Below, one piece after another: positions 23,594 to 41,448 of a DNA stretch of 61,779 nucleotides. Source of the DNA: a virus (taxonomy: Duplodnaviria; Caudoviricetes); the IMG/VR virus record IMGVR_UViG_3300025030_000017, positions 1-61,779 of that record. One strand, given 5' to 3'. The notes under the pieces were generated by a model. The model was given only the letters and a program-made list of their open reading frames with translations, made no database searches and was not told the DNA's origin. The stretch's first letter is position 1, and every line of letters begins with the position of its first letter. A program made the position numbers and the translations under genes.

Positions 23594-23640
23594 TTATAAC
23601 TCACGCTTCACCCGACGAGCGGGTGAGCTTGGTGTTATCC
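23594..23640 (+). mobile_element. attC-like site (47 bp)
   Basis: R'' TTATAAC, L'' GCTTCAC, CCG-ACGAG-CGG, L' GTGAGC, R' GTTATCC; L'' has one unpaired extra base. Confidence 0.7.
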
Positions 23641-24006
23641 CTGATGGTGCATCCACCGTTTAACCTTCTTGTGTTTTTTGCTCCGGCACAGTTCCAAGAT
23701 AAACCCGCTAATATCATGAGACTCCACCAGCAGTTGAATCCCGCAATAGACATGGCCAAGTTCTTTAGCCAGCAGAGCACGGTTACTGGTCTTTTCGGGG
23801 TCATCAGGATGATAGCTCTGATACCCGTGCCGCAGAATTTTACCGATGATCTGCTGCGCTTCAGCCATTTCTTCCATCACAAATGCAAGCCGTTCCGCCT
23901 CCGCAGGTGTCAGCCGATTAAAAGGGATAACCAGTGAATCGACCGGTGTTCCATCCTTGTCGCACTGGCAATTGAAAGTTGATGTATCTACCGTTGATTT
24001 ACACAT
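23635..24006 (-). CDS. MazG-like nucleotide pyrophosphohydrolase
   Basis: EEMAEAQQIIGKILRHG...ELGHV acidic helical motif. Confidence 0.7.
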   Translation of the reverse strand: MCKSTVDTSTFNCQCDKDGTPVDSLVIPFNRLTPAEAERLAFVMEEMAEAQQIIGKILRHGYQSYHPDDPEKTSNRALLAKELGHVYCGIQLLVESHDISGFILELCRSKKHKKVKRWMHHQG

Positions 24007-24042
24007 TTGTTTTCTCCCCGGTCATTCACAGACCCGTTATAC
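23925..24042 (+). mobile_element. attC-like site (118 bp) overlapping the start of the MazG-like gene
   Basis: R'' GGATAAC, CAGTG, AATCGACCGG ... CCGGTCATT, R' GTTATAC; R'' is the exact complement of R' GTTATCC at 23634. Confidence 0.6.
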
Positions 24043-24113
24043 TACCCAAGACGGAACATCAAACTCATGGTAAAAATCACAGTCGTTTTTGATTATCAAT
24101 GTGCCGTCGCAGG

Positions 24114-25016
24114 TCACGCAGCCCTCAAACTGTAAGGTGTCTGGGCGACCTCAATCATATCCTGTGGAGCTAATTGCTTAAAACTGCCGCAGGATTTCAG
24201 ACCAAGCATTTGCGCCATACTAATAGTATCCAGTGGCACCTTATACTTGGGGAAGTGATCGGCTTGCCGGCATTCATGAATCAGGAAGATGGTGGTTCGC
24301 GCCAAGCGCATTGACTTTTCCATGTATTCATCATCCATTGCTACAATCCGCACTTCAGGTGGGTCCCCAAAGTTAAAAGCCACAAAAGCGAAGCCAAGTA
24401 CGTCCATGCCGTTAATCAAGGCACCATTGGTATAATGTCCACCCTGAAGGAAGTATCTTAGTTTTTCTATCTGATTGTGAAAATTATCCAGTCTTGCACA
24501 CTTTTTTAGATCGAAGATCGTTTTGTAACTGGGGTCCGGATAATGGTCGAGTCGGCCTTTGCATGCCAAGCCAGTATCAGGGTCATTCCAGAATAAAGAA
24601 AGCTGCTGATCGCCCTGGCGAAAGATGATTTTAGTCATGGGATGTTCACGGTATAGAAAGTTGTCAACATCCGTGATTGCCTTCAGTGTAGGGATTTTCT
24701 TTGTGGTGACGGTTGCCGGCAAGATCGTCTTGCCTTTACCCTGCATTGACTCAATAAACTCGTCCCGCTCCTTGCGCCTGGCCGGACTTCTCATATCCCC
24801 GAAGTCAGGCATGATGATAAAGTTCTGGTGAAAATGTTCCGGCCCGTAAAGCGTAAAGGAATCCTGTGCGCTACCGAGTTCCATATCTTCGCTCACCTCC
24901 ACCGGGTCAAGAACGGATGCAGGGCAATCGTGGAACCGTTTCAAGGGGCTGGACCCAAGCGCATTGAGAGCGTGGTATTGTTTTTCAGGCATGCCAGAAA
25001 TGATTTCAGCGCCCAT
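24114..25016 (-). CDS. RecE/ExoVIII-like PD-(D/E)XK exonuclease (DUF3799-like)
   Basis: YHAxxALGSSxLK, CKGRLD, IFDLK, YFLQGGHY; in the same operon as RecT. Confidence 0.85.
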   Translation of the reverse strand: MGAEIISGMPEKQYHALNALGSSPLKRFHDCPASVLDPVEVSEDMELGSAQDSFTLYGPEHFHQNFIIMPDFGDMRSPARRKERDEFIESMQGKGKTILPATVTTKKIPTLKAITDVDNFLYREHPMTKIIFRQGDQQLSLFWNDPDTGLACKGRLDHYPDPSYKTIFDLKKCARLDNFHNQIEKLRYFLQGGHYTNGALINGMDVLGFAFVAFNFGDPPEVRIVAMDDEYMEKSMRLARTTIFLIHECRQADHFPKYKVPLDTISMAQMLGLKSCGSFKQLAPQDMIEVAQTPYSLRAA

Positions 25017-25689
25017 AACAACTCCTGTCTTTTTTGCGTTGGACTTTTTCTCCGTATTTCCACTTATACCCACTAGTTTGGAAAAGCTTCCCTTGGCAAA
25101 CTTGAGTTATAGATGATTGATGGCAACCGGAAACGAGTGCCGCCTCTTTAGTTGAATCGAATCGTTGCAATTCTTTTCCTTCGAGATCGCACATAATGAC
25201 TTGTGTTCTACGTGTTTTTATCAGTTCAGAACGACCTTTCAACTTATTGTCCGCCCAAGTCATTAATTGCAGATTGTCTAAAGTGTATGGTTTTGTACAA
25301 TCTTTCCTATCAAAGCTAGGTCTTAGATTGGTGTCGTATCCAGATGCAACCCAAGAATCGTACAGAGAATTAAACACCGGGCAATCCATAAACAGTTCAT
25401 GCAATATTGCTAAAGAATAATTAGGCATAGGGTGCCCACGTTTGACACTCATTTCTCGTTGGTGGTTATGGGCTACCGTTAAAACACCTTTCTTGGTCTT
25501 TTTGTACGTTCTTAACCCTCCTTTCCACATTGGATGGTTTACGCCTTTAGAGTTGTGCCCTAGTATGTAATTTATGTGTTGGCCTTTTATCCACCCTTTT
25601 ATTTTGTTATTTCTAGTTGCGATCCGTGTTGTCCCACCACACCCGCATTGGCAATAACCTTCTGCAATTTCCAACTTGAGCGATTTCAT
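25006..25689 (-). CDS. Free-standing HNH-type endonuclease with C-terminal NUMOD1-like DNA-binding domain
   Basis: N-terminal CQCGCG, PSFDRKDxxKPYTLDNLQLMTWADN, FDSTKEAA...SITQVC...GYKWKY. Confidence 0.8.
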   Translation of the reverse strand: MKSLKLEIAEGYCQCGCGGTTRIATRNNKIKGWIKGQHINYILGHNSKGVNHPMWKGGLRTYKKTKKGVLTVAHNHQREMSVKRGHPMPNYSLAILHELFMDCPVFNSLYDSWVASGYDTNLRPSFDRKDCTKPYTLDNLQLMTWADNKLKGRSELIKTRRTQVIMCDLEGKELQRFDSTKEAALVSGCHQSSITQVCQGKLFQTSGYKWKYGEKVQRKKDRSCYGR

Positions 25690-25868
25690 TGCAAGTCCTT
25701 TACCTGTACATGAAGTGCCTTGGCTATTGCTTTAGCATTGTTTAAGTGAACGCCCTTGCCGGACTCGATTCGGTTGATAGTCCGACCCGTCAGCCCCGTT
25801 TTTGCGGCCAACTGCTCTTGGGATAAATTGTTCTGCTTTCTTAATTCTGCGAGTTTGGTCAGTACCAT
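25686..25868 (-). CDS. Cro/XRE-type helix-turn-helix regulator
   Basis: LAELRKQNNLSQEQLAAKTGLTGRTINRIESG; AGGAGG RBS. Confidence 0.9.
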   Translation of the reverse strand: MVLTKLAELRKQNNLSQEQLAAKTGLTGRTINRIESGKGVHLNNAKAIAKALHVQVKDLQ

Positions 25869-25888
25869 TGTTTTCCTCCTGTGATGCG

Positions 25889-25917
25889 AAATTATCAACA
25901 TTGAGATTATATGTCAA
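25889..25917 (-). promoter_or_regulatory. Leftward sigma70 promoter with overlapping imperfect palindrome
   Basis: TTGACA-17-TAATTT; AATTATCAA-CAT-TGAGATT overlaps the spacer and -10. Confidence 0.6.
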
Positions 25918-25940
25918 GAAAAATTTATGTAAATATCCCC

Positions 25941-26080
25941 TTGCAATTTTATTTTTTCGGGTTTATGGTAGCGCCATGTTCAGCCAACAGGAAACATCAA
26001 TGGGAGGTGTCACATGCAACCAGGGGGGGGAAAGCCCTCCGCAACAGGGGAAGGGCGGATAACAACTATCGCCCTTTTTC
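25941..26080 (+). ncRNA. Candidate short sRNA or leader transcript
   Basis: TTGCAA-17-TATGGT promoter; terminator AAGGGCGGATA...TATCGCCCTTTTT about 100 nt downstream. Confidence 0.35.
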
Positions 26081-26093
26081 TGCAAAATCTTAC

Positions 26094-26240
26094 TTGACAT
26101 TAATTATTTTTCTGCTACCTTGCGGCAAAATTGAATATCAACCGCTGGTCGAGAGCGTGTTAAAACTTGGTGATGGCTCCTAGTTGAGCCAGATCCCGTA
26201 AGCCTGTCAGGATGCTCGACCCATCTTGGCAGGCTTTCGT
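26094..26240 (+). promoter_or_regulatory. Promoter and structured leader of the replication operon
   Basis: TTGACA-16-TACCTT (TG extended); hairpins with complementary loops GGTCGAG (26147-26153) and CTCGACC (26215-26221). Confidence 0.6.
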
Positions 26241-26270
26241 TATTTCAGCCGATGGCAAAAAGGGATGGGA

Positions 26271-27113
26271 ATGGGGCCACAATGCGAAGATGGCTATACC
26301 AAAATTGCTAATGAGCTGCTTGAAGCTTTGTGCCGTTTTAGAATATCTGGAGAATCAATGCAGGTTTTTTTGACAATTTTACGCAAGACTTATGGTTTTG
26401 GTAAGAAGTCCGACATGATCGCTTTGAGCCAATTTGCAGAAGCAACCGGCATTGGAAAGCCAAATGTAGTAAGGGCGCTCAGACAACTGTCTACTCTCAA
26501 CCTGATATTGGTTGAAAAGGGTTCGGTCATATCTTACGGGATTAACAAACACCATGAAACCTGGATCAGGGAAAAGCGAGAAAAAATACGTCCGTCTTTA
26601 CCTAAACCTGTTATCAAAATTGATAACGATATTGTCAAAAACGATAACGATAGCGTTATCAAAATTGACAACGCGTCGTTGTCAGAAACGATAATAAACG
26701 TTATCGAAATTGATAACAAACCGTTGTCAAAATTGACACCCACAAAAGAAAGGAAAGAAAAGAAAGAAACTACTACAAAAGAAAAAGTAAATCTTCTTGA
26801 AATATGTGAAGCATGGAAAGCGTTTGTGGAAATGCGTAAATCAATCAAGAAGCAGATGACTGAATATGCCATGCGTCTCAGAGTTAAAGAACTATTCCGT
26901 TTATACGAACAGGGATACGACCCCATAGAAGTTTTAAATCAATCTACCGCTAGTAATTATCAAGATTTATACCCAACAAAGGAGAAGACAAATGGACGCC
27001 GAGACGAAGGAACTGGAACTCCAAAAGAAAATCAAAGAAGGCCAGGATTTATTGAAGCAAACGGCCCTGACGCTGATTGGCTCGGAACTGGCCAACAACC
27101 CCCCCTCTTGTGA
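26271..27113 (+). CDS. Lambda O-like replication initiator
   Basis: EDGYTKIANELLEAL...ILRKTYGFGKKSDMIALSQFAEATG; internal iterons. Confidence 0.92.
   Translation: MGPQCEDGYTKIANELLEALCRFRISGESMQVFLTILRKTYGFGKKSDMIALSQFAEATGIGKPNVVRALRQLSTLNLILVEKGSVISYGINKHHETWIREKREKIRPSLPKPVIKIDNDIVKNDNDSVIKIDNASLSETIINVIEIDNKPLSKLTPTKERKEKKETTTKEKVNLLEICEAWKAFVEMRKSIKKQMTEYAMRLRVKELFRLYEQGYDPIEVLNQSTASNYQDLYPTKEKTNGRRDEGTGTPKENQRRPGFIEANGPDADWLGTGQQPPLL
26610..26790. repeat. Replication origin: six 18-bp palindromic iterons plus A-rich tract
   Basis: GTTRTCAAAATTGAYAAC-like copies at 26610, 26631, 26655, 26678, 26700, 26723, followed by a purine/A-rich strand-biased tract as in lambda ori. Confidence 0.88.
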
Positions 27114-27792
27114 CCGCTGTGGGGGGGAAATGTCGTGGAGCGGGAAACTGGATGGATGGTGCTGTGTAGCTTGCTATGAAAGACAGCAAGCTCACGAAGC
27201 GTCCCGCCTTGCAAAAGCCAGGAAGCGTATGCTGGAACAGTCTGGTATCGGGGAACGATTTATTGGCATGACTTTTAGCAATTACATTCCGGAGAATCTA
27301 GCTGCTGAAAAAATATTGGGAGCTTGTAAGGACTACGTTGACAAATTTAGTCCAGGGTCAGATTCGTATCTTATTTTTATAGGTTCGCCGGGTACTGGTA
27401 AAAATATGTTAGCCGCTATTATTGGGCAAGAAATTATCAAGAAAGATTTTCATGTGGTTCATACAACTGCAATCAAATGTGTGCGGCAAATAAAAGATTC
27501 TTGGCGTGGTAAGGAAAATTCTGAACAGGATGTTATAGATTCTTTTGTGAGGCCCGATTTGTTGATAATCGATGAGGTAGGTGTGCAGTTTGGTACGCCT
27601 ACAGAGCAGCTATTTCTTACTGAAATCATTAACGACAGATACGAGCGCAAAAAACCGATGATCCTTATTTCCAACTGTACGTTAAAGCAGTTGGAAGATT
27701 TAATGGGAGCGCGTGCTATAGACAGGTTCCATGAAAGCAATAGCCAGATATTTGTTTTTAACTGGAACAGCTACAGGCGCAAATCCAAATGA
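26992..27792 (+). CDS. dnaC: DnaC/IstB-like helicase loader ATPase
   Basis: Zn motif CDRC...CVAC, Walker A GSPGTGKN, LLIIDEVG, IINDRYE...ILISN. Confidence 0.9.
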   Translation: MDAETKELELQKKIKEGQDLLKQTALTLIGSELANNPPSCDRCGGEMSWSGKLDGWCCVACYERQQAHEASRLAKARKRMLEQSGIGERFIGMTFSNYIPENLAAEKILGACKDYVDKFSPGSDSYLIFIGSPGTGKNMLAAIIGQEIIKKDFHVVHTTAIKCVRQIKDSWRGKENSEQDVIDSFVRPDLLIIDEVGVQFGTPTEQLFLTEIINDRYERKKPMILISNCTLKQLEDLMGARAIDRFHESNSQIFVFNWNSYRRKSK

Positions 27793-29135
27793 ACGACCGC
27801 AAACTACCACCGCAAGCCATAGAGGGCGAAGTCTCGATCCTTGGGGCCATATTTCTTGACAACTCTTGCATCCGTAAAGTCTCCGGAATCATCGACGCAA
27901 TGGACTTTTACCGTGAATCGCATCGAAAAATATTCAGAGCGATGCTTCATCATCAGTCCAAAGGAATTCCTATCGATCTCGTAACACTCAGCAACACGTT
28001 GAAGGATCGTGATGAGCTGGAAGAAGTCGGCGGGGCATCCTATCTGGTCCAGCTTGTCGATTACGTCCCGACTTCAGCCAACGTCGAGTATTACTGTAAG
28101 ATGGTCAAAGAAGCATCGGTGCGCCGGCAGATGATCTTGTACGGCGAGAAGATAAGCGAGATGGCCTATGAAAGCGAGTCGGTAGGCGAGATCATCCCTG
28201 AAGCGAAGTCAGGTTTGTCTGAAATCACGGCAAACATGGATTCGTTTGGCGGTGTTTCCCTGCAAGACCTTTCCACCTTCGACTCTCGTATGGCGAATTA
28301 CGAACGGCGCGTCAAGACAATCGACCAAGACAGGTTCATCACTGAATACGCACTGCTGGACAGGAAAATCAGAGGGGTAGCGCCTGGGGAAGTGATGACC
28401 ATAGTTGCAGAGCCGGGAGGGTTCAAGACTGCGTTTCTGCAAAACCTTCTCAAGCGTGGGGCAAAACGGACGAGCAAACATGCGCTGTTTTTTTCAATGG
28501 AGATGCCTGACGACAAGATATTTGAACGGGAAATCCAGATTGATTGCGGTGTTTCAGGGTGGGATGTGGAGTGTCATTTCAAGGGTGGCGGTAGGTATGC
28601 GATAGACCAGAAAAACATCGCTGCCGGCCATAACGGGCTGATTGTCTGTTCGAAACCGCGTCTTTCGCTGGAACAAATGGAGCGGTATGTTGATCTGACA
28701 CGACAGAAATTTGGCGAAGTGGTGGCCCTTGGGATTGACTTTATCCAACTCATGCCGGGACCGCCTGGGACTAGCAAAATATTTGACAGGATCGAGCACA
28801 ACGCTTATGGAGCAAAAACTATGGCGAAGGCGCTCAACGTCCCGGTGATTCTTCTGTCGCAGATTAACGTATTAGGACGTAAGGAAAAGCAGGGTATCAA
28901 TTTCAGCGATGCGAAAGGCGGCGGGGCTATAGAAGAAGCTGCCGACATAGGACTTGGTTTCTACCATGATAAGAGCGGCGTCCTGGTTTGTGAAGGGCTG
29001 AAGAATCGCAATGGGCCGCGAGGTTGGAAACTTGAAGCAGAGATCAACCGGGTTACGTTTCAGTTTATCGACTTCACTCTTTACGAGGAACGGAAGGGCA
29101 AGGCTAAAGGGGAGGATGACGGATGTCCGTACTAA
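27789..29135 (+). CDS. dnaB: DnaB-like replicative helicase
   Basis: LPPQAIEGEVSILG, AEPGGFKT, FFSMEM, IDFIQL, LSQIN, IEEAAD, KNRNG. Confidence 0.93.
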   Translation: MNDRKLPPQAIEGEVSILGAIFLDNSCIRKVSGIIDAMDFYRESHRKIFRAMLHHQSKGIPIDLVTLSNTLKDRDELEEVGGASYLVQLVDYVPTSANVEYYCKMVKEASVRRQMILYGEKISEMAYESESVGEIIPEAKSGLSEITANMDSFGGVSLQDLSTFDSRMANYERRVKTIDQDRFITEYALLDRKIRGVAPGEVMTIVAEPGGFKTAFLQNLLKRGAKRTSKHALFFSMEMPDDKIFEREIQIDCGVSGWDVECHFKGGGRYAIDQKNIAAGHNGLIVCSKPRLSLEQMERYVDLTRQKFGEVVALGIDFIQLMPGPPGTSKIFDRIEHNAYGAKTMAKALNVPVILLSQINVLGRKEKQGINFSDAKGGGAIEEAADIGLGFYHDKSGVLVCEGLKNRNGPRGWKLEAEINRVTFQFIDFTLYEERKGKAKGEDDGCPY

Positions 29136-29154
29136 TGAAGGGGAGGGAGCAATT

Positions 29155-29340
29155 ATGGGATTGAAACAGCATATTGGCTTTCTGGTGATATTGGCCGTCA
29201 TGATGTTTATAGCTTGGCTGTTTGACATTAATAACGTCCAGAATAAGTATGATTGGACTGTCCCGTTCGTATCTGCGTTCATGGTTTGGTTGATAGCTGA
29301 AGTATTGTACTGGCTGTTCTATTATTTTTTTATCGTTTGA
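29155..29340 (+). CDS. Small two-TM membrane protein
   Basis: GGAG RBS; two hydrophobic helices. Confidence 0.6.
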   Translation: MGLKQHIGFLVILAVMMFIAWLFDINNVQNKYDWTVPFVSAFMVWLIAEVLYWLFYYFFIV

Positions 29341-29355
29341 CCTTCAAGGAGACGT

Positions 29356-29568
29356 ATGCAAACGCTCAACCTACTCAACGACACCATTCTCGTCTGTAAT
29401 TCCGGTGAAGTGCGTCAGGTCTGGACCGATCAGCCGAACGAGCACAAGTATCGCGTCTGGACGGAGCAGGAAGTGAGACTCGCGACCTTACTTGACGAAA
29501 AGGATCTCTTGGAAATCGTCAAACGGAAGAAATCGCCAAAAGGGTTTGTGTTTAAAGGTCAGGTATAG
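29356..29568 (+). CDS. Hypothetical protein
   Basis: AGGAG RBS, 70 aa. Confidence 0.65.
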   Translation: MQTLNLLNDTILVCNSGEVRQVWTDQPNEHKYRVWTEQEVRLATLLDEKDLLEIVKRKKSPKGFVFKGQV

Positions 29569-29695
29569 GGCAGGGACGAACGAGGCTAAGGCAGGAATTG
29601 ATTTTGAGACAGGGTGAATGGTTGTGGTAGGGTCGGCAAAGGCAAACGTGTTATAACGCAAATTTGGAAGAAATTGAAATCGAAAGGAGGGAGTG

Positions 29696-29854
29696 ATGGA
29701 TGATGCGGAGATTTGCCCTTATAAAGATGCGAAATATTGCACTAGACCGCACGTACACGCCAACGTGCGTCATTGCCGATGGGCGGCGAGGGTTCGGCAC
29801 AAGTCGCAGTGGGGTGGGTCGTTGGTGAGATGCTGGAAGGGGAAGAAATTATAA
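29696..29854 (+). CDS. Small hypothetical protein, 52 aa
   Basis: AGGAGG RBS; stop codon lies within an attC-like R box. Confidence 0.45.
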   Translation: MDDAEICPYKDAKYCTRPHVHANVRHCRWAARVRHKSQWGGSLVRCWKGKKL

Positions 29855-29910
29855 CGGTTTGAAATAACCGGCGAAGCGCAGCAAAGACCGAGTTGATTGT
29901 TTGGTTATAG
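29849..29910 (-). mobile_element. attC-like site (62 bp)
   Basis: Minus strand: R'' CTATAAC, CAAAC, L'' AATCAAC, extra T, CGG...CCG, L' GTTATT, R' GTTATAA; two extrahelical bases as in canonical attC. Confidence 0.8.
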
Positions 29911-29935
29911 CCCGTTTTCGCCACGGAGAGGCGGC

Positions 29936-30196
29936 ATGATTAAGGCACCGTGGACAACAGCGCAAATCGAAAATCTAAGGAAACGGCAAGCAGAACCAAC
30001 ATTGCACTCCTATACCTGCGACGACTGCGGGAATGATCTGTACCCGACAGAGCAAGGATGGGAGTGTTACACAGATGGATGCAACTACACTCAGGATTGG
30101 GCACACACTTCGGACGTGACCGGAGAGTTTCAATCACTAGTGGATTTCAGGAAGCACCTGGACAGCAAAATAGACGCATCACTGGAAGGGATATAA
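29936..30196 (+). CDS. Zn-binding hypothetical protein carried in a cassette-like unit
   Basis: IKAPWT...HSYTCDDCG...GWEC...CNYTQDWAH; bounded by GTTATAG (29904) and ATATAAC (30191). Confidence 0.75.
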   Translation: MIKAPWTTAQIENLRKRQAEPTLHSYTCDDCGNDLYPTEQGWECYTDGCNYTQDWAHTSDVTGEFQSLVDFRKHLDSKIDASLEGI

Positions 30197-30259
30197 CAAT
30201 GATTACCCTGCCATATCAGCCGTGATAACTGGATAATTAGCGACAAAGGCAGAAATACA

Positions 30260-30556
30260 ATGACCGTGCCAAACCTTTACAAACGCTGCGACAACCCCCC
30301 CTGCCACGAACTAGCCCCATACCCTGACCCGTACTGTTGCCCACGGTGCAAGAAGAACCACCAGAGCAGGATGTATCACTTGCGGCACTTTGGCCCAACG
30401 CGTCAGGAAAAGGTAACGTGGCAAAGCAAGCGCCAACGAGTGATGACGGACGCGGAACAGGAGCAGATTAACTTGACAGCAACACGGGCGATGGCGGCGA
30501 GGATGAAGCAGCCGCTTGATAAACTGGCAGCGCGGAGATGTGGCGCTCTTTGGTAA
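30260..30556 (+). CDS. Cys-rich hypothetical protein
   Basis: CDNPPC...YCCPRC. Confidence 0.6.
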   Translation: MTVPNLYKRCDNPPCHELAPYPDPYCCPRCKKNHQSRMYHLRHFGPTRQEKVTWQSKRQRVMTDAEQEQINLTATRAMAARMKQPLDKLAARRCGALW

Positions 30557-30583
30557 AACGTGACCGGCTAATTGGGGAGAGAT

Positions 30584-31070: not shown

Positions 31071-31412
31071 TCAAAATTCCCCCCTTAATCTCGCGGCACA
31101 TATCGCGGCGGTGATGTCTTCTTTCGTGTGACCGGCAGCTATTAAGGCTTTCTGTTGCCAGTTTTTGACCTTGATTTCGCATGAGTAGACGATTTTCTGA
31201 AGCTTCAGGTATTGCGTGTCAACGGCCATGAGATAAACGCGCCTGGTTGTGACTTTGTTTGTCCGCACCTGTATAAGCTGATAAATGTGACCGGCGAATC
31301 GTAACAGGGGGCGCTCCTTTGACCATAGAATCGGAATGGTCGTGACGCATTTCGGGTTGACTGCTCCGAGTTCCAGGCAAGCGTAGGGCTGTGTGCGTTT
31401 CTGTTTCTTCAT
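31071..31412 (-). CDS. Hypothetical protein with shared C-terminal WQxxA...TAAICAARL module
   Basis: GAGGA RBS; C-terminus similar to those of 32735..33073 and 48594..48878. Confidence 0.7.
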   Translation of the reverse strand: MKKQKRTQPYACLELGAVNPKCVTTIPILWSKERPLLRFAGHIYQLIQVRTNKVTTRRVYLMAVDTQYLKLQKIVYSCEIKVKNWQQKALIAAGHTKEDITAAICAARLRGEF

Positions 31413-31728: not shown

Positions 31729-31750
31729 GGTTCCCTCCCCTTTTTTGAAA

Positions 31751-31847: not shown

Positions 31848-32049
31848 ATTTTTATTGGAAACGTGTGCTATAGTCTTAATTGTAAGGCCGTCAGATAGCG
31901 TCAGTCTTCTGACGTGCTGCAATGTTTAGCGATGCCAGTTAATCAAGACCTTGGTGAGAGGATAAGCATTTCCTCTCCCCAATACCCCTCTACCCTTCCG
32001 AGTTCTCAAGGGTAAAACCAATCAACCAAAATCGTGACCGGCGATTTGC

Positions 32050-32694: not shown

Positions 32695-32734
32695 AGTATT
32701 CCTCCTTAAAAATCGTGACCGGCTAATTGACAAA

Positions 32735-33319: not shown

Positions 33320-33341
33320 GGTCGGTCCTTTCTTTGTTGGT

Positions 33342-34562
33342 TTAATGACCGGGGCGGAGGCGCACTATTTCACCAAATGGCGGCGGGCTGGCTTGATACT
33401 TCCCGGTATTGACCCATAGACAGGGATACTCTGGCTCGTTGCCATAATCTGAACAGGCCAGATCAGTCAAATACACGACGGCGCATGGCGTCTCTTCCGC
33501 GTTCTCTTCTATCCATTTCCAAACCGGGTAAAATCGCGTCCCGCCTCCGCCTTTCGCGTCAAGCCTAATCGGCCTCGTCTCTGCGGTGAACTCTTCAACG
33601 TGTTGTACTTTGGTGTCACAGTAGATCACGGTGACGGTCGTCGGGTACTGGTTCAAAATGTCGTCAATCTCGCTGGCGAATTGCTGTAAATCGTCTTTGG
33701 TGATACTGCCGGAAGTGTCAACGGCTACGACAAGCGGCGGCATTTCCTGGTTGTAGAGTGAGGGAAGGATAAGACCTCTTGAGAAATATCGCGGGTTCGG
33801 GCGCTTCCAGGTGTAGTCGTTTCGGGCGGTGCGGTCGATGAACTGTCTAAGTGCTTCCCGCCAATCAACAACCGGTTCTAAAAGCTCGTCAACGTACCTT
33901 GCAAGACTTCCCGGCAACTTGCCCGCCATTTTCGCGGCTTGCGCTGCCTGCTGCGTGGCAATTTTCCAGTCTTGCGCGTTCTGTGCCTTGTCGCTGTCGC
34001 TGGCTGGCTGTCCGTCTTTTCCTGGCAAGTCCCTTACCTCGCCACATTTACCGGGATCGCCTAAATTTGGCTCCTGCGGTCCTTTGCCTTGCTTCCCTGC
34101 TCCGTTGCCTGCTCCGTTTCCCTTTCCCGGTCCTGGGCCTTGTGGTGGCTCTGGGATAAGGTTGTAAATCGCTTCCGCTTCCAGGTTTGCAAAGGCGGGT
34201 GACAAAAGTCTATCTTTCGGAAGTTGCATACCTGCGGCTTCGATCAGGGGGTTAATTGCATAATCGGCGGCAAGGTTCCAGCGTTGCGGGTCGCGTTCTC
34301 CCCTGCGGCATTGGTGCGCGTTGGCAAGGTGCATAACTTCATGGCATAAAACACCTTTAAGCTGGTCAATCGGGAGTGAGTCCACAAAGGCGGGGCAATA
34401 GCCGATATTTACTCCGTCGGTCCACATGGTGCGTTGTTCAGGGTTCTGGATGTACAGCATTTCATCCTCGATCAACTTGGTTTTGAGGGCAAGCGAGCCG
34501 AAAAAGGGCTGGTCAAGTATGAGAGCACTCCTTGCTTTTCTCATTTTCTGTTCTGCTGTCAT
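33342..34562 (-). CDS. HExxH metallopeptidase-like plus vWA domain protein (DUF2201-like)
   Basis: PFFGSL, TMWTDG, LCHEVMH, WNLAADYAIN, VAVDTSGS (MIDAS), GGGGT, YLTD. Confidence 0.9.
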   Translation of the reverse strand: MTAEQKMRKARSALILDQPFFGSLALKTKLIEDEMLYIQNPEQRTMWTDGVNIGYCPAFVDSLPIDQLKGVLCHEVMHLANAHQCRRGERDPQRWNLAADYAINPLIEAAGMQLPKDRLLSPAFANLEAEAIYNLIPEPPQGPGPGKGNGAGNGAGKQGKGPQEPNLGDPGKCGEVRDLPGKDGQPASDSDKAQNAQDWKIATQQAAQAAKMAGKLPGSLARYVDELLEPVVDWREALRQFIDRTARNDYTWKRPNPRYFSRGLILPSLYNQEMPPLVVAVDTSGSITKDDLQQFASEIDDILNQYPTTVTVIYCDTKVQHVEEFTAETRPIRLDAKGGGGTRFYPVWKWIEENAEETPCAVVYLTDLACSDYGNEPEYPCLWVNTGKYQASPPPFGEIVRLRPGH

Positions 34563-34772
34563 TTACATTCCCCTTTCTGTATAAATACGCTCAATGGCGT
34601 CTATCTGCTCTTGTGGTGCGTTCCGGATTTTTGCAGGATCGGCGTTTACCCCTCTGGATGAGTCGGATAAACGTGTTAGGCTAATCCTGCCGTAATAGTC
34701 AACTAACCCTTCCAATCGCCAATATCGGCCTTTGTAATACACGTATTTTGTAAACTGCGGTAAATTTGCCAT
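34563..34772 (-). CDS. Hypothetical protein
   Basis: GGAGG RBS before MANLPQF. Confidence 0.65.
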   Translation of the reverse strand: MANLPQFTKYVYYKGRYWRLEGLVDYYGRISLTRLSDSSRGVNADPAKIRNAPQEQIDAIERIYTERGM

Positions 34773-34838
34773 GGTTCCTATTCCCTCCTGTTGATTGCTT
34801 AATGATGCCCCTGAATAGATCAGGAGCACGATAAACAA

Positions 34839-35696
34839 TCAAGCTGCGTTCATGTAACCGCACATCTTAGACATGATTTCGGCACAGTCATTTGCAACGG
34901 CTTGCCGGGTCTTCTTATCGATTCTCAATGTCTCGGGTTCGTATGCTGTCAACCTGGCGGAAACTTCCTTTGTCAGTCGGTCAAGTTCGGCGTCTCCTGC
35001 GATATTCAAGCGGGGTAACAGGTCCACGAGTTCAACGATGTTGCCGACAAGGGAATCCCTGAAGATAGCATCAGGAGTGCTTAACCGTTCTGCCATTGCT
35101 GATACTGCGGTATGCAGGCGGCTCCATACGTCTCTCATGGCTGCGTCCTGGGCCTGCTGGCTTCTCGCGTCAAGCTCGGCTTTGATCCGGCTCACTTCGG
35201 CGTCTCCAAGGTCAACGCGAAAGTCTGACGCATCCGGAAGCGGGTCAACCTGCGTTTCGAAGGAATATTTACTGACGATGTTTTCGGCGCTGGGGTAGTC
35301 TGACTGCACAAACAACGAATTGAGGCGGATTTTAGCATCTTCGACTAATGCGGGGTACTCGATTAAAAACTCGCTGACTGCTGCCTGGAACGCTGCTTTA
35401 TGTTTTCGCATCCCTTCAGAATAGGCGAAGAAATTAGCGGCGGGTAGAATCCTCGCTCCGTCGTCGTTCCAAGGAAGGGTTTGTGCATAGTGAAAAGTTC
35501 GGGCGTCTCCTGCTGCGCTCTGTACCTTCTTCAAGGCGTTGGTGGCTATCAGGGATTTATTGTATCTCCCGGCGTCGTTCGAAGTCTGGAAGTCGTTTTT
35601 GATCTTCTCTGTCGCGGTTTTGTCCAAGCGTCTCGCGCTCCAAATACTTATAGAGAGACGGGCAAGCATGGCTTTTTTACTGATAACGTGTGTCAT
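34839..35696 (-). CDS. Helical MoxR-associated protein (DUF3150-like)
   Basis: SISIWSARRLDK, TLPWxDDGARILP, DYPS, FRDSLVGNI, LPRLNIAGD; lies between the ATPase and vWA genes. Confidence 0.65.
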   Translation of the reverse strand: MTHVISKKAMLARLSISIWSARRLDKTATEKIKNDFQTSNDAGRYNKSLIATNALKKVQSAAGDARTFHYAQTLPWNDDGARILPAANFFAYSEGMRKHKAAFQAAVSEFLIEYPALVEDAKIRLNSLFVQSDYPSAENIVSKYSFETQVDPLPDASDFRVDLGDAEVSRIKAELDARSQQAQDAAMRDVWSRLHTAVSAMAERLSTPDAIFRDSLVGNIVELVDLLPRLNIAGDAELDRLTKEVSARLTAYEPETLRIDKKTRQAVANDCAEIMSKMCGYMNAA

Positions 35697-35699
35697 GGT

Positions 35700-35909
35700 T
35701 TAATGCTCCTTTCGTTGTCTGCGGTCGTTTCCGCGTGATGTAAAGCACTGGTTCGGGCAAAGTTGACAGGGTTTCCGATCAACGGCAAAATACAGGTCAA
35801 TTAAAAAGTCTGCTCCGCGTGGCGTCTCCATCAGTTTGCATCCGTGTCTTACGAGGTCGGCTAAATCGGGCTGCGGCTTGTGCCTCCGTTCCTGCAGTCG
35901 TCTGGTCAT
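35700..35909 (-). CDS. Hypothetical protein
   Basis: AGGAG RBS, 69 aa. Confidence 0.55.
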   Translation of the reverse strand: MTRRLQERRHKPQPDLADLVRHGCKLMETPRGADFLIDLYFAVDRKPCQLCPNQCFTSRGNDRRQRKEH

Positions 35910-36003
35910 AGCTCCTTTCCTCCGTTTAGTGAATTACCGTGTGGTTGGCTGTAACTGCTTATCTGAACCGTTAAGGATCTTAACGGCTCAATAAACGGTC
36001 AAG

Positions 36004-37014: not shown

Positions 37015-37017
37015 GGT

Positions 37018-37317
37018 TTAGTTTCCTCCTTTGGCTTTGACAATGGCGTCAATAGCCATATAGTAAGCGGCTGCGGCGTCTTCGTCGTCTTCGTGGAGCT
37101 CCATAAAAAGTCGGATTTCTTCGGCGACTCTCTCTAATGCCGTTAAAAGTTCCGGCGCGGCTGCTATCAACTGCGCATTTGCAAGGGCTTCCTCGTCGCC
37201 AATGTCGCGTGATACAAAATTAACTCCTGCAACAGATGACGATTTCGCATCCGAATAAATGAAGTGATTACCTGATGACGATGCTTTGATAGTCCATGGT
37301 CCTTTTGTGTGTTTCAT
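37018..37317 (-). CDS. Conserved phage hypothetical protein
   Basis: MKHTKGPW...ANAQLIAAAPELL motif common in phage early genes. Confidence 0.8.
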   Translation of the reverse strand: MKHTKGPWTIKASSSGNHFIYSDAKSSSVAGVNFVSRDIGDEEALANAQLIAAAPELLTALERVAEEIRLFMELHEDDEDAAAAYYMAIDAIVKAKGGN

Positions 37318-37640
37318 GTCAATTTCCTCCTTTAATCTGTAGTAATGCCCAAAAAAGCACGATAATTCCGCCAATGGTGATACATTCCATGTGGGTTAAT
37401 CCTCCAAAATGACGGTTTCAACCTTTAGAGGCTGCTTTGTGTAAATGACGATGGTCAAGCGGTCGCTGTCCTGGGTTGCGGTCAATAGTGCGTCACCTAA
37501 TTTGACTGTGGTAATCAAGGGCTGTGTCATTGGTCGTTGCTCCTAAAATCTGACTTCAAGAATAAGATGCCTTACGCGTGGCAGTTCTGAGCGTTTGATA
37601 TAATCCCATTTGCCGGTTATCCATTTCACGCGGATCATGT

Positions 37641-37829
37641 CTAAAGTCCTTTCTGGTTGGTGCTTAGATGTTTCTGGATTCTACGACGGCAATTCTTGCA
37701 GGTGGCTTGATTGCGGAAAATAGTATTGTCTAGCTTTGTTATTGATCCAGGGCCGTCATCGAGTTTAACGCCGCAGTACGCTTCTTGATCAGTGTAGAAT
37801 CGTTTGTAATGGATAGGTCTGTTTTTCAT
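37641..37829 (-). CDS. Small Zn-binding hypothetical protein, first gene of the early operon
   Basis: H...YCG...TCKNC; GGAGG RBS. Confidence 0.65.
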   Translation of the reverse strand: MKNRPIHYKRFYTDQEAYCGVKLDDGPGSITKLDNTIFRNQATCKNCRRRIQKHLSTNQKGL

Positions 37830-37864
37830 GGGGTTCCTCCGTGGTTGGTATATACCTTAAATGT

Positions 37865-37882
37865 AAGCATATCTTGTGCCAA
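37865..37882 (-). promoter_or_regulatory. Sigma54 (-24/-12) promoter
   Basis: TTGGCACAAGATATGCTT = GG-N10-GC, about 36 nt upstream of the first ATG of the operon. Confidence 0.7.
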
Positions 37883-37908
37883 CAAATTGAGGGATAATAT
37901 AGCAGTGT

Positions 37909-38065
37909 AATCAATGGGTTATAAATGGGGTGAATGTGAGTGTAAAGAAATCCAACACAAGTGGAAAGTATTCCACAACTTATCAAGGAGTTATCCCCAG
38001 ATAAATTGGCGTAACATGCGGATATTTAAGGAAGTCGGGAAATATTACAGAAAATCTGTGGATAA
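37909..38065. promoter_or_regulatory. Upstream control region: two IHF consensus sites, a palindrome and DnaA boxes
   Basis: AATCAATGGGTTA (37909) and TATCAAGGAGTTA (37981) match WATCAANNNNTTR; GTGGAA-AGTA-TTCCAC (37961); TGTGGATAA (38057) is a perfect DnaA box, TTATCCCCA (37991) has one mismatch. Confidence 0.55.
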
Positions 38066-38077
38066 GTGGCTATTGTG

Positions 38078-38536
38078 TCAGTCTTTTTTACACTTTCGGG
38101 CATAGTCGGCTATGATCTTGTCAAGAAATGCTTGGTCAAGGGGGGGGAGGGTTCCAGGGCGGATATAGTTTTGTAGCATGTCGCGTATTGTGGCGCTTGG
38201 CGTTTTCCCTAATAATCCAGCAATGAGGCGCAATTCCCACATGATACCAGGTGTGAGCCTTACTGATACCATTACCTCTGCTTTATCCTGGCGTTTCCTT
38301 GGGGCGATCTGCGGCCAAAATATTTCATGTGTATAAAGATACTTCCGTTCAAGCTCCCGCCTCGCCAGTATAAGGCGGGGTTGGGGGTCGATGTTCTCCA
38401 GGTCGTTCCCGTCCTGGTCGATCCAGGTAAAGCCAAGGGTGGACTCCAACAAACGTATCTCCTGCGGCTCCTGCGTTTCGCGGTCGATCAGGCTAACGGT
38501 GTATTCCATCTGTCGTGCGGAGTCGCGTTTCCCCAT
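38078..38536 (-). CDS. Protein with C-terminal ribbon-helix-helix-like segment
   Basis: VSVRLTPGIMWELRLIAGLLGKTPSATIRDMLQNYI; GGAGG RBS. Confidence 0.6.
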   Translation of the reverse strand: MGKRDSARQMEYTVSLIDRETQEPQEIRLLESTLGFTWIDQDGNDLENIDPQPRLILARRELERKYLYTHEIFWPQIAPRKRQDKAEVMVSVRLTPGIMWELRLIAGLLGKTPSATIRDMLQNYIRPGTLPPLDQAFLDKIIADYARKCKKD

Positions 38537-38552
38537 GTGCTTTATTCCTCCA

Positions 38553-38738
38553 TTAAATATCCATAGGTGTGTTCAGGTCGATCCAGGTCATTCTTCTGGC
38601 TGCTTCCAGGTCCTTTATCGTTTGTGCCGTTGTGGTGGCTGCTTCCTGCATGGCTGCTTTGCCTTCCGGAGTCTCAAGCCATGCGGCGGCTGCTGCTGCC
38701 ATTGCTTCAAGTTCATCAAGGGTGAATTCGTTTGTCAT
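38553..38738 (-). CDS. Small Ala-rich hypothetical protein
   Basis: GGAGG RBS before MTNEFTL. Confidence 0.6.
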   Translation of the reverse strand: MTNEFTLDELEAMAAAAAAWLETPEGKAAMQEAATTTAQTIKDLEAARRMTWIDLNTPMDI

Positions 38739-39456
38739 GGGTCCTCCGTCTTGGGGCTGTGTCGTCAAAAGTCGCGTTTCCCCTGTTGCCTCTTTCCCAT
38801 ACCTCAATATAGATACTCCTGAACTTTAGCCTCTGCCGTTCCCCTTGGGGGCTGTGCCATAAAAGCCTAAATCAAGGCATACTATCCCCTGTCCTACCTA
38901 CTTAAAAGCCTTCTCAGGGCAAATTTGGAGTTCAGACACATCCCGAAAACAGCCAAAAGAGCCAAAAACAGCCTTTTTATGGGAATAACAGAATACAAAC
39001 GGGAAAACAAGTGGGAAGTCGGCTGCATACAAAAGGCGCTAGAAACGAGAATGAAGAAAGGGGCGGCTCATCGTCGCGGGGTATTATGTCAAGTTCATGC
39101 GCGCGCGTCCGCTATGGTGGCCGATCTAGCTATATTCCAGAGGTGCAAATGAGGTACATCAGGAGGGGGGAAGCGTGTGGCAAGGTAGCATGGACCATCG
39201 ACAGATGTGCCAAGTGCTTAATTATCGCGTGGTTACTCCATTAACTACTTCCATTAGTTGCTCAATGTGGCCCGATCTCCCCCGTCCTGGCGGCTCCTGC
39301 TGGCCTGCTCTCTGCCCCTGCCGGCCCCACCCCCACCCCCCTAGTTGTCCCGACACATCATTTAATATGTCACCCCCTCTCTCAAGCTTGCCCCATTTTT
39401 GGAGTTTAAAACGACTCCCCCCCCCTAAAAAATTTTTCTCCCCGTTTTTTATTCTA

Positions 39457-39503
39457 TTGACTTGCTCAATCCAATTATGATAATAGTGGTAATCATTGGA
39501 TTG
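39457..39503 (+). promoter_or_regulatory. Rightward promoter with inverted repeat
   Basis: TTGACT-16-GATAAT; CAATCCAAT (39467) ... ATTGGATTG (39495). Confidence 0.55.
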
Positions 39504-39512
39504 GAGGTGGCT

Positions 39513-39635
39513 ATGAGTGAGTATGTTTGTAAGCGGTGCGGGTATGATTGGGTGAGCAGAATTAAAAAGCCTAAGTGTTGCCCCCGATGCAAAAGTTACC
39601 TGTGGGAAAAGGAGGTAGCAAATGAGTCGGTCTAG
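39513..39635 (+). CDS. 40-aa zinc-ribbon protein
   Basis: MSEYVCKRCGYDWVSRIKKPKCCPRCKSYLW; GGAGGT RBS. Confidence 0.75.
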   Translation: MSEYVCKRCGYDWVSRIKKPKCCPRCKSYLWEKEVANESV

Positions 39636-39921
39636 GCGAGTTTGGAACGAAGTGGCGTACAAGCCTGGGGTCGAAGTGACTGTTGAGCCGATAGAGGGGG
39701 CCGCGCCTTCTATAAAGTCTGCGGCTAAGACGGTGCGCGAGAATTGGCAGCGTTGTGCTGAATGTGGCAAGGAGATTTGGTCTGAGTTCGGGAAGGAATA
39801 TTATCATCTTCTTGCGTGTTCCAAGAGCAATGGGATTGGGTATTACGATGGTGAACGGACTCAGTGTTGTGGTAGGCCGATTAAGGAGCAGGAAGCGATT
39901 ATGTCGAAGGTGAAGAAATGA
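39622..39921 (+). CDS. Cys-rich hypothetical protein
   Basis: AGGAGGT RBS, CAECG. Confidence 0.65.
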   Translation: MSRSRRVWNEVAYKPGVEVTVEPIEGAAPSIKSAAKTVRENWQRCAECGKEIWSEFGKEYYHLLACSKSNGIGYYDGERTQCCGRPIKEQEAIMSKVKK

Positions 39922-40502
39922 CACGTCAAATGGCTCAAGCGCAGAATCATCCGAAAAAGGACAGCATCATAGCATCGAAGCCGATTACGGATATGGCGAG
40001 GATAGCGAAGATCAAAGCTGACTTGTCTTCTAGGCCGCGTGACTTTGCTCTGTTCACCGTGGGGGTCAACACTGCGTTTCGTGCCTCGGACCTTTTGAGC
40101 CTCAAGGTTGGCGATGTGAGGGGTGACGTTATCGAGAAGCGCGAGAAGAAGACTTCAAAGGTCAGGAAGTTTTATCTCAACAACACGATCAAGAAAGCGG
40201 TCGCGCCTTTGATCGCAGGGAGGGATGACGATGACTGGTTGTTCGTCTCTGAGCGCGGTGGTGGGCCTCTGACTGTGCCTGCGTTTTCTCAGATGGTGAA
40301 GACGTGGTGTTTCAGGGCTGGTCTTAGGGGAGGGTATTCGGCTCATTCGTTGAGAAAGACCTGGGCAAGATACCAGTACGAGGCTGGTGAATCATTGACG
40401 ATGATTTCTGATGCGTTGGGTCATGTGTCGGAGAAGGTGACGCGGGTTTATCTCGGCCTTCAGGTGGAAGATATGAAATCGATGTATATGAGGGAGATAT
40501 GA
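39918..40502 (+). CDS. Short tyrosine recombinase (catalytic domain only)
   Basis: NTAFRASDLL (R), EKKT (K), HSLRKT (HxxR), LGH, TRVY (Y); 194 aa. Confidence 0.93.
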   Translation: MTRQMAQAQNHPKKDSIIASKPITDMARIAKIKADLSSRPRDFALFTVGVNTAFRASDLLSLKVGDVRGDVIEKREKKTSKVRKFYLNNTIKKAVAPLIAGRDDDDWLFVSERGGGPLTVPAFSQMVKTWCFRAGLRGGYSAHSLRKTWARYQYEAGESLTMISDALGHVSEKVTRVYLGLQVEDMKSMYMREI

Positions 40503-40763
40503 AACTCTGCATCAAATGCGGCGGCGAGGTCAAGAGCAAGAAGGGTGTCTATTGCCCTGCGTGTCTCAAGAAGATTTGCCAGCCACGTTTCAATGGACGG
40601 CGCGGGGTTATCATGCCTGATTATAAAAGGAGGTCACTGTGAGTGTTTTTGACGTTCCTATCACCGACGAGAACAGCGAGTTCCTAGAGCGCGTTGCTAT
40701 CATCATGGAAGGTGAGAAGTGCGATGAGGCGAGGGCTGTGGAGATTGCGAAGGAGACGACAAA

Positions 40764-41090
40764 GTGACCGACTCTCCCGACCTCTACGCGATTATCGAAC
40801 TGATGGGCCGGCAGACAATAGCCGGGAAGGTGAGCGAGTACAGCCTTGGTGGGACATTTGTGCGCGTTGACGTGCCTGCTGTTGGTGGCAATGTCGGATT
40901 TACCAAACTATTCGGGGCGCAAGCGATTTACGGCACGTTTGTGGATCGGGATGTTTGTTTGGCTGCTGCTGAAAAGTTGGGTCGGGTGCCGGTGACTGTC
41001 TACGATTTAGGAGCAGTGACGGCAGAGGCGGTGAAGCAGAGGCTTTTGGAGTCAACACGTGTGGATGGCTATGACGACCCACCGTTTTAG
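40764..41090 (+). CDS. Conserved phage hypothetical protein
   Basis: AIIELMGRQTIAGKVSE...FVRVDVP. Confidence 0.75.
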   Translation: MTDSPDLYAIIELMGRQTIAGKVSEYSLGGTFVRVDVPAVGGNVGFTKLFGAQAIYGTFVDRDVCLAAAEKLGRVPVTVYDLGAVTAEAVKQRLLESTRVDGYDDPPF

Positions 41091-41115
41091 ATAACACCCG
41101 CGCTGCGGGGGAGGA

Positions 41116-41165
41116 GTCTAACGGTTTGAATTAACCCGCCTGTCGGGTTCGATGTCTGGTTATGG
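41116..41165 (-). mobile_element. attC-like site (50 bp)
   Basis: Minus strand: R'' CCATAAC, CAGAC, ATCGAACCCG-ACAGG-CGGGTTAAT, TCAAACC, R' GTTAGAC (perfect GTTRRRY). Confidence 0.75.
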
Positions 41166-41187
41166 CGCGCGGTGATCGGAGACTAAA

Positions 41188-41364
41188 ATGGATTTTACTT
41201 ATGACCAAGCAAGAGATTTATTTGAAGCATTCGGCGGGGATGAAGAAACGGTGATAACTGTAACTCTCGTAACAAATGGGCATAGTGGACCTGGCCTGTA
41301 TGCCAGCTTTACAGACTATCCCGAAGAGGGAGGCATCTTTCTTGGCGACGAAGAAGCACCATAA
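41188..41364 (+). CDS. 58-aa acidic protein forming a complete gene cassette
   Basis: MDFTYDQARDLFEAFGGDEE...YPEEGGIFLG; GGAG RBS; flanked by two attC-like sites. Confidence 0.75.
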   Translation: MDFTYDQARDLFEAFGGDEETVITVTLVTNGHSGPGLYASFTDYPEEGGIFLGDEEAP

Positions 41365-41406
41365 CCAACAAGCTCACCGGCTCGTCCGGTGCAGCGGGAG
41401 TTCCGC
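41359..41406 (-). mobile_element. attC-like site (48 bp)
   Basis: Minus strand: R'' GCGGAAC, GCTGCACCGG-ACGAG-CCGGTGAGC, TTGTTG, R' GTTATGG. Confidence 0.72.
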
Positions 41407-41448
41407 CGCCATCTGCGCGGCCATAACGAGGATGATTGGCGAGGAGGA

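Follow-up and report, generated by a model that had tools for sequence, protein, structure and literature searches.

The window analysed here is the whole 61,779-nucleotide sequence of IMG/VR record IMGVR_UViG_3300025030_000017, a virus of the Caudoviricetes, in which four short hairpin sites lie between small accessory genes. These sites resemble attCs both in sequence and in structure and are conserved with compensating base changes, and relatives and co-occurring strains carry different genes beside them. It is probable that the four are of the integron attC type and that an integron integrase (IntI) supplied in trans by the host exchanges, or once exchanged, the neighboring genes. Host IntI is the most likely mechanism of exchange, judging from the phage attCs of Qi et al. 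2023, of which five of the six tested were recombined by IntI1 (PMC9892861), and the observations suggest that the phage swaps small accessory genes as integrons do. In such a scheme mini-attCs of 47–62 nt, each with paired R boxes, an unpaired central spacer, a bulged L stem and a very short terminal loop, would be the points at which the host integrase exchanges the adjoining small genes, and this exchange would add to the ordinary gene-boundary mosaicism of phages.

The four supported sites are listed in Table 1 with the other features discussed below. All four carry AAC and GTT in their left (R'') and right (R') boxes, respectively. In site 1 the R'' box TTATAAC is followed by a 4-nt spacer, a 9-bp stem with a 5-nt loop, a 5-nt spacer and the R' box GTTATCC, and a single bulged base lies three pairs above the base of the stem. 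Site 5 has the same arrangement of 3 bp, bulge and 6 bp, and the 24-nt core common to these two sites, which a preliminary description of the window had pointed out, was matched twice in the sequence compared with no match in 100 shuffles; the two copies differ by one compensating C-G/G-C change and in the identity of the bulged base. The L box of site 3 is of the aadA kind with two extra bases, and in the model alignments described below the extrahelical position of L'' is represented by these two bases in site 3 and by an asymmetric mismatch in site 4; sites 3 and 4 have 18 nt in common. The R boxes of sites 1, 3, and 5 pair at 5–7 of 7 positions in a rule-based scan and those of site 4 are paired in the model alignment, while the outer four R positions match the RYYY/RRRY pattern only in part. 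Complementary cassette ends are present in the sequence as had been described, the R'' box of site 4 being the exact complement of the R' box of site 5. When folded as single-stranded DNA, site 1 gave z values of -4.3/-4.6, site 5 -3.0, and site 4 a marginal -2.3/-2.0, compared with -2.6, -2.5, and -5.2 for the real attCs of estX, aadA2, and cmlA1. Sites 4 and 5 are about 200 nt apart, whereas sites 1 and 3 stand alone, the closest other site being 6 and 11 kb away. In IntegronFinder the distance for a cluster of attC sites lacking integron integrase (CALIN) is 4 kb; Qi et al. 2023 require two or more attC sites within 3 kb, and by that definition sites 4 and 5 form such a cluster.

The preliminary description had listed five complete sites, each with the stop codon of the adjacent gene in its R' box. 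The fifth (site 2) is not supported: about 80 of its 118 bases are coding, positions 23925-24006 being the first 27 codons of the 123-amino acid open reading frame (ORF) in Table 1, and its fold is unremarkable (z -0.4). The stop codon lies in R' in sites 1, 3, and 5, and is the TAA of the 123-amino acid ORF in site 1 and that of the 58-amino acid ORF in site 5; site 2 lacks this feature, as does site 4, where the stop codon of the upstream gene is at 41088-41090.

Table 1. Positions of the sites, the recombinase gene and the adjoining unit and genes within the window
Feature	Position	Strand	Description
Site 1	23594-23640	+	47 nt, between two minus-strand genes
Site 3	29849-29910	-	62 nt; R'' CTATAAC, R' GTTATAA
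Site 4	41116-41166	-	51 nt; R'' CCATAAC, R' GTTAGAC; 6-bp hairpin, 5-nt loop
Site 5	41359-41407	-	about 48 nt; stem and bulge equal the L''/L' stem of the estX attC
Claimed site 2	23925-24042	+	attC status unsupported
Tyrosine recombinase, 194 aa	39918-40502	+	catalytic domain only, Xer-like; PF00589, 5.8e-21
Unit of 424-430 bases	29854-30277	+	site 3, ORF 29936-30196 and an 81-nt tail
123-aa ORF	23635-24006	-	stop in R' of site 1; no Pfam family; different gene at this place in the relative L013
58-aa ORF	41188-41364	+	between sites 4 and 5; no Pfam family; flanked by a 9-nt inverted repeat
120-aa ORF	23218-23580	-	just downstream of site 1; absent in L013

A loose rule (AAC...GTT, at least 5 of 7 R pairs, spacers of 4–6 nt and a 7-bp L stem with one bulge) was matched 367 times in the window compared with 371 ± 25 times in 20 shuffles. 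This is chance frequency, and the described geometry alone therefore proves nothing. The motif ATAAC/GTTAT is over-represented genome-wide (131 occurrences versus 86 ± 10 in shuffles), so the half-sites proposed at 30191, 41089, and 41421, each a single ATAAC motif, are mere motif occurrences. Local clusters of the motif were seen at 23.5–24.1, 29.8–30.3, and 41.1–41.8 kb. RNA folds of entire intergenic gaps were mostly no better than shuffles, and an Rfam scan of the window returned no family, even at E<=5. Because of these last two results and the chance frequency of the loose rule, the sites were at an early stage read as ordinary hairpins with TAA stop contexts, a reading that was abandoned after comparison with real attCs.

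That comparison was made with home-made covariance models. Model R1 represents the phage hairpin of the type found in sites 1 and 5, R2 was seeded with only four class 1 attCs (aadA2, aadA1, psp, and qacH), and R3 was built from nine R2 matches (E<=0.8) in phage loci, including sites 1, 3, and 4 of the window; E-values are rough, as the calibration was shortened. A scan of the whole window with R2, run with filters off, gave 11 matches at E<=10. Site 3 ranked first (16.5 bits, E 0.041), site 4 third (13.4 bits, E 0.4), and site 1 fourth (13.0 bits, E 0.51), on the strands and at the coordinates previously given except that site 4 is one base longer. The match ranked second (59175-59223, plus strand, 14.2 bits) is inside an ORF, has no AAC/GTT and looks like noise. 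Among the other phage loci, which are designated here by L numbers, R2 gave 25.8 bits (E 8e-5) and 16.5 bits in L015, 24.7 bits in L008, and 20.5 bits in L017, where the match is the copy of the site 1/5 hairpin. R2 is narrow: beyond its four seeds it recognized in the real arrays no more than cmlA1 (35.8 bits) and a single Shewanella site (21.8 bits), and it was rejected as a general attC detector since it misses nearly all Vibrio and Shewanella attCs. A generic attC model from MAFFT alignments A2 and A3 was likewise given up before being built, the right half of the sites being misplaced in both.

With R3, site 5 was detected at 41363-41407 on the minus strand (31.8 bits, E 2.2e-5) despite being outside the training set, and so was the homologue of site 1 in L013 (42.2 bits); the training members sites 1, 3, and 4 scored 49.6, 43.1, and 49.0 bits. 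Site 2 reached only 12.1 bits (E 4), with nothing else significant in 61.8 kb. The test set of real arrays comprised 51 kb from three phage records with real integrons named in Qi et al. 2023, in which 27 real attCs were delineated by rule and by eye. R3 recovered 24 of the 27. It gave 32 matches at E<=5 in this set, 30 of them in arrays and on the array strand, one reversed inside an attC and one outside the array, and all 17 matches at E<=0.05 were in arrays. In the opposite direction, the best match of R1 in the same 51 kb was the bottom strand of the estX attC (17.2 bits, E 0.019). Only nine R3 matches were found in 585 kb of other phage DNA (default filters), indicating that R3 is specific. 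In alignment A7 of nine phage sites 87% of the cells are paired, ten pairs show changes in both partners, and all nine sites have the three AAC/GTT pairs unchanged. Its covariation score was 0.365 compared with 0.121 ± 0.026 for shuffled alignments, none of 500 reaching it, and fell to 0.03–0.07 when slid.

The class 1 cassette attCs of estX, cmlA1, and aadA1/aadA2 used for comparison were taken from MH445380. Site 5 and the estX attC have the same 9+10-nt stem, bulge included (19-nt identity), and the common stem reads on the opposite strand relative to its gene. Like the class 1 attCs, the phage sites have AAC/GTT R boxes, an unpaired spacer and an L stem bulged after the third pair, and the aadA-type core CCGAC..GCGG aligns with sites 1 and 4. 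The class 1 attCs are 60–86 nt long, their terminal stem is longer and they contain a second extra base, whereas the phage sites have a 5-nt loop at the place of the second extra base of the aadA type. A BLAST search of a 64-nt stretch around site 5 against plasmids and phages returned only short matches (E 0.03–6); a Pantoea match to this stretch, which sits between ordinary chromosomal-type genes, was discarded.

The idea that ordinary hairpins and stop-codon contexts resemble attCs by chance would agree with the loose-rule counts, with the abundance of ATAAC, with TAAC ending 13 of 100 ORFs regardless of any site and with R2 scores close to that of a noise match. It is nevertheless very improbable in view of the reciprocal model results, the 19-nt identity with the estX stem, the covariation and the specificity of R3. 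The architecture recognized by integron integrases, which had been attributed to all five sites, is supported for four of them by the reciprocal models and the identity with the estX stem, sites 1, 3, and 4 being found by R2 (E 0.04–0.5) and site 5 by R3, and is not supported for site 2.

At all four sites the top strand runs opposite to the local genes, as had been noticed before; their folding (bottom) strand is accordingly the coding strand of the flanking genes. In integrons it is the bottom strand of attC that folds and recombines. The top strand of class 1 attCs runs with the cassette gene, and in the real arrays the strand matched by R3 was the gene strand in 30 of 30 in-array matches. 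Scans with exact patterns identified seven more folding copies of the site 1/5 hairpin, in L004, L011, L013, L015, L016, L017, and L019, one of which has A-T at the variable pair. The contexts in L016, L017, and L019 are phage-like. Pattern matches in L003, L012, L014, and L018 were put down to chance, with two central pairs unpaired and a coding-like context as judged from the flanks only. AAC is found 6–8 nt before the hairpin in seven of the nine copies and GTT 4–5 nt after it in eight. Mini-attCs in other uncultivated phage contigs, which come from groundwater and sediment metagenomes, often cluster in twos or threes. They are inverted relative to the genes in L013, L011, L015 (three sites in 2 kb), L017, L008, L074 (three sites), and L029-L032, and probably also in L004 (three sites in 550 nt). 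In L016 (4035-4660) and L019 (2839-7256), in contrast, three sites each are co-oriented with the genes, as is canonical for integrons; the orientation is thus not fixed. L016 and L019 are unrelated phage-like contigs of 37% and 43% G+C. A separate small hairpin with a 5-bp GC stem and a 3-nt loop was seen after stop codons, beside different genes, at 41098-41110 of the window and at 2118-2140 of L005, and has no attC-like score with R3.

These contexts bear on an alternative in which the hairpins, derived from attCs or convergent with them, no longer recombine and either serve the transcript (processing, stabilizing, or weak termination) or are decaying relics. An ORF on the coding strand stops 9–10 nt before the site 1/5 hairpin in six of nine copies and 15 nt before it in a seventh, an ORF with a ribosome-binding site starts 24–57 nt after it in six of the nine, and the same orientation relative to transcription is kept in most lineages. 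Copies in L004, L016, and L019 lack one R box, site 3 folds poorly, and each indel has a single fitting edge, as described below; attCs are moreover thought to hold weak terminators (Qi et al., PMC9892861). Speaking against a role in RNA are the empty Rfam scan, the lack of a T-run after the hairpins in the window, the co-oriented sites of L016 and L019 and the covarying pairs, nearly all of which are Watson-Crick with very few G-U, so that A7 fits DNA better than RNA. In addition, the AAC and GTT triplets and their spacing are kept where the stop codon sits elsewhere (L011, L017, and L019). On balance this alternative appears rather unlikely, and the reading of the sites as attCs used by a host integrase is preferred.

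Whether genes have been exchanged at the sites was examined in a close relative, L013, which spans window positions 35216 down to 21912, in L005, which spans the region right of the recombinase gene, and in run X3, a second sample of the same study; run X5 covers the stretch thinly (depth 0–6) and nothing was drawn from it there. L013 lacks the unit containing site 3, its two flanking ORFs overlapping there in GTGA, and X3 contains both forms, a joint of 29847 to 30278 (depth 27.6, shorter side 72 nt) and the form with the unit kept (depth 15.1). The left edge of the unit is at TATAA↓C within one base. At site 1, the gene upstream of the hairpin in L013 is not the one found in the window, and homology between the two begins at TAAC. 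At site 5, the sequence of an X3 contig differs up to the ..ATAA that precedes 41366. L005 diverges directly after TAGATAAC at 41095. Another X3 contig joins 24034 to 41360 on opposite strands, with a shorter side of only 37 nt; this joint would put the end of the 58-amino acid ORF beside the leader of the 123-amino acid ORF. Among the loose ends listed for X3, the six at 23928, 24040, 29862, 29928, 41366, and 41435 all lie at or beside motifs of the preliminary description, and 108 further loose ends were counted over all runs. The 58-amino acid ORF together with site 4 (about 41122-41364) is the only unit with cassette-like matching ends. None of the ORFs checked beside the sites has a Pfam family, ORF 41452-41628 having been scanned as the longer 41389-41628.

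The 120-amino acid ORF behaves differently. Its indel leaves the hairpin in place and is therefore not cassette behavior. The protein has a 34%-identical homologue in the other accessory region of L005 and is the only one among the fetched loci with a relative outside its syntenic place, ORF 29936-30196 being excluded from this statement. The gain and shuffling of cassettes proposed earlier is supported only in part: the presence and absence of the site 3 unit and the TAA↓C joins at sites 1 and 5 agree with it, and the indel of the 120-amino acid ORF and the remaining edges do not. Of the breakpoints expected at G↓TT in relatives, several variant joints have one edge within a base or two of AA↓C, and their other edges do not. 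A 208-base unit at 34581-34788 (ORF 34563-34838), absent in L013 and in X3 and X5 contigs, is flanked by similar ribosome-binding-site sequences and is an indel of the same kind as that of the 120-amino acid ORF. Two HNH-type endonuclease genes (PHROG matches) are present at 25006-25689 and 33342-34562, one encoding 406 amino acids; free-standing nucleases of this type could add to mosaic joints.

No IntI is encoded in the window, in agreement with the preliminary description: a six-frame search with TIGR02249 gave at best 17.4 bits against a cut-off of 265, and the same search finds IntI at 394–508 bits in the three phage records with real integrons. A complete integron, with intI, attI, and a promoter beside the array, is accordingly not present. 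The window does encode a short tyrosine recombinase, whose gene lies 0.6–0.9 kb upstream of sites 4 and 5 at the head of the same operon. It scored 80 bits with the XerA model and 19.8 bits, over residues 123–179, with the IntI model (cut-off 265). Its closest solved structure is XerA (5hxy), whereas IntI4 (2a3v) matches over only 64 residues and is 320 amino acids long compared with 194; the protein is thus Xer-like and not IntI-like. The residues R, K, H, R, H, and Y, which we take to be catalytic, are invariant in 17 homologues. The family, of about 195 amino acids, comprises 95 homologues, and 126 viral contigs encode a relative. Homologues are found 54 nt upstream of the L008 site, just upstream of the three L074 sites, 1.6 kb upstream of the L029-L032 site and 0.5–1.5 kb upstream in L017, in all of which the sites are inverted relative to the recombinase gene.

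This recurrent placement, together with the position of the gene at the head of the operon with sites 4 and 5, the invariant residues and the size of the family, raises the question of whether the phage enzyme itself acts on the mini-attCs, which would make them a self-contained cassette system independent of IntI. Such an uncultivated phage lineage, with mini-attCs of about 47–62 nt whose folding strand is the coding strand and which are recombined by an Xer-like enzyme of about 195 amino acids, consisting of a catalytic domain only, and not by a bacterial IntI, is conceivable but doubtful. No R3 match was found within 4 kb (default filters) at 70 of the 78 recombinase loci searched, and of the seven contigs whose hairpins were found independently of the recombinase only L017 has one in the part covered. 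L008, L074, and L029 were fetched through window proteins and are therefore not independent samples. The link between recombinase and sites is a lead and not a result because of the empty loci and because several of the positive ones were obtained in this way. Sites 1 and 3 are moreover 10–16 kb from the recombinase gene, and the enzyme has no N-terminal DNA-binding domain, in addition to its limited match to IntI. If a phage-run system of this kind were true, small genes would move between the two accessory regions and between phages.

Several observations weigh against exchange of attC-type sites by a host IntI, which we still favor. As to the sites themselves, the real attCs used are 59–136 nt long and the phage sites only 47–62 nt; where aadA-type sites have two extra bases, sites 1 and 5 have one bulge and site 4 an asymmetric mismatch; the AACAA and GCGTT contexts, present in 16–18 of 18 aligned real attCs, are missing; and sites 1 and 5 have a left spacer of 4 nt compared with 5 nt in the real attCs read by eye. 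Their orientation in the window is the reverse of that of all 30 real attCs, and the fold of site 3 is no better than shuffles (z -0.8/-0.9). As to the models, the R2 E-values are marginal when taken singly, a likely false match scoring among them, and R3 scores on aadA-type attCs are partly circular since the R3 training set was picked by R2; the Vibrio and Shewanella attCs, which R2 missed, are exempt from this circularity. The covariation figures of A7 are inflated because the alignment was fitted to the structure. The frequency of TAAC at ORF ends given above also belongs here. As to exchange, searches for IntI in the window and in the L004, L005, and L008 records were negative. The right edge of the site 3 unit is 81 nt past ATATAAC, the expected cassette end, and the indel of the 120-amino acid ORF is bounded by ribosome-binding-site repeats and not by R boxes. 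Only one edge per indel fits AA↓C, the other edges not fitting a G↓TT exchange, and the remaining breakpoints mostly coincide with start codons or ribosome-binding sites that lack AAC/GTT. The combination that marks integron gene cassettes, namely co-orientation, G↓TT at both ends and complementary first bases, was not seen for the genes beside the sites.

The genomic setting is that of a complete phage. The window begins and ends with the same 124 bases, and its record carries the classification of a virus with direct terminal repeats and a completeness of 100%; the window therefore represents an entire phage genome, of about 61.7 kb. The modules are of lambdoid style: the minus strand carries RecT-like and exonuclease VIII-like genes, the plus strand DnaC-like and DnaB-like genes, and the large terminase is farther right. 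Genes are on the minus strand from 18.6 to 25.9 kb and from 30.6 to 39.8 kb, and on the plus strand from 25.9 to 30.6 kb and from 39.9 kb onward. The genome contains no tRNAs, and megablast of 20 kb against deposited phages found no near match. With the exonuclease as query, the only viral locus obtained was a weak match, L007 (30% identity over 68 residues, E 2e-4), and it was left out of the comparisons; metagenome contigs yielded no confirmed match. A DnaB search in species genomes returned only a 33%-identical match in a metagenome-assembled genome of the Flavobacteriaceae, which is uninformative on the host.

Further features of this genome were noted outside the sites. The replication-initiator gene (26226-27113) contains five iterons at 26610-26741, each a 19-nt palindrome of the GTTATC..GATAAC type, spaced 21–45 nt start to start; the arrangement resembles a lambda-style origin, and these iterons yield false attC-like matches in the loose rule scan. 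Comparison of window 26138-29370 with L013 5347-8237 shows the whole replication module (initiator, DnaC-like, and DnaB-like genes) swapped for unrelated sequence, and the exonuclease region is swapped too, in a relative that is otherwise 80–93% identical. A 20-nt motif containing CGTGACCGGC occurs four times in the minus-strand gene block, at 30555-30574, 31282-31301, 32029-32048, and 32710-32729. The copies are about 700 nt apart and two are exactly at L013 homology breakpoints; the motif may function as an operator or promoter, or as a second type of module linker.

The nearest known systems are phage attCs and phage stem-loop cassettes. Attention was drawn to phage attC sites in 2023, when 17 CALINs were reported in 10,705 phage genomes (Qi et al., PMC9892861). 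Like those described in that paper, as far as it was covered, the sites of the window have no neighboring IntI and lie between small ORFs of unknown function. They differ from those CALINs in being shorter and in being spread over 18 kb as one pair and two singletons, and from those attCs in being all inverted to the genes and in belonging to a family common to several uncultivated phages. In the same paper the cassettes of TJE1 and PH101 have the same direction and the sites of P12002L are divergent, and the parts covered contain no statement on the orientation of attCs relative to ORFs (PMC9892861). A literature search found no title or abstract opening pointing to mini-attCs inverted to phage genes; similar sites may be listed in the supplementary tables of Qi et al. 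The mosaic joints of the window invite a second comparison, with small mobile elements of T4-type phages. Mobile regulatory cassettes termed PeSL (promoter plus stem-loop) reportedly occur at module boundaries of these phages (Arbiol et al. 2010). The sites resemble PeSL in being conserved intergenic stem-loops that flank small variable genes at mosaic joints. PeSL are reported to be promoter-bearing and are not known to be attC-like, whereas the model evidence ties the present sites to integron attCs.

Sites of this kind have thus been known since 2023; what is new is their compact form, their reversed orientation, their occurrence as a family across uncultivated phages and the short recombinase that recurs beside them. 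Until now the only phage attCs known were rare clusters that standard tools had detected in cultured or deposited genomes. Integron cassettes are known to include anti-phage defense genes, and if the mini-attCs recombine, phages and integrons would share a common pool of small genes. With the reversed orientation, the strand that folds would then be the non-template strand of the phage operons, which bears on how the sites become single-stranded. Their repeated placement downstream of a very short tyrosine recombinase is relevant to the question of whether attC-type hairpins can be used by enzymes other than IntI.

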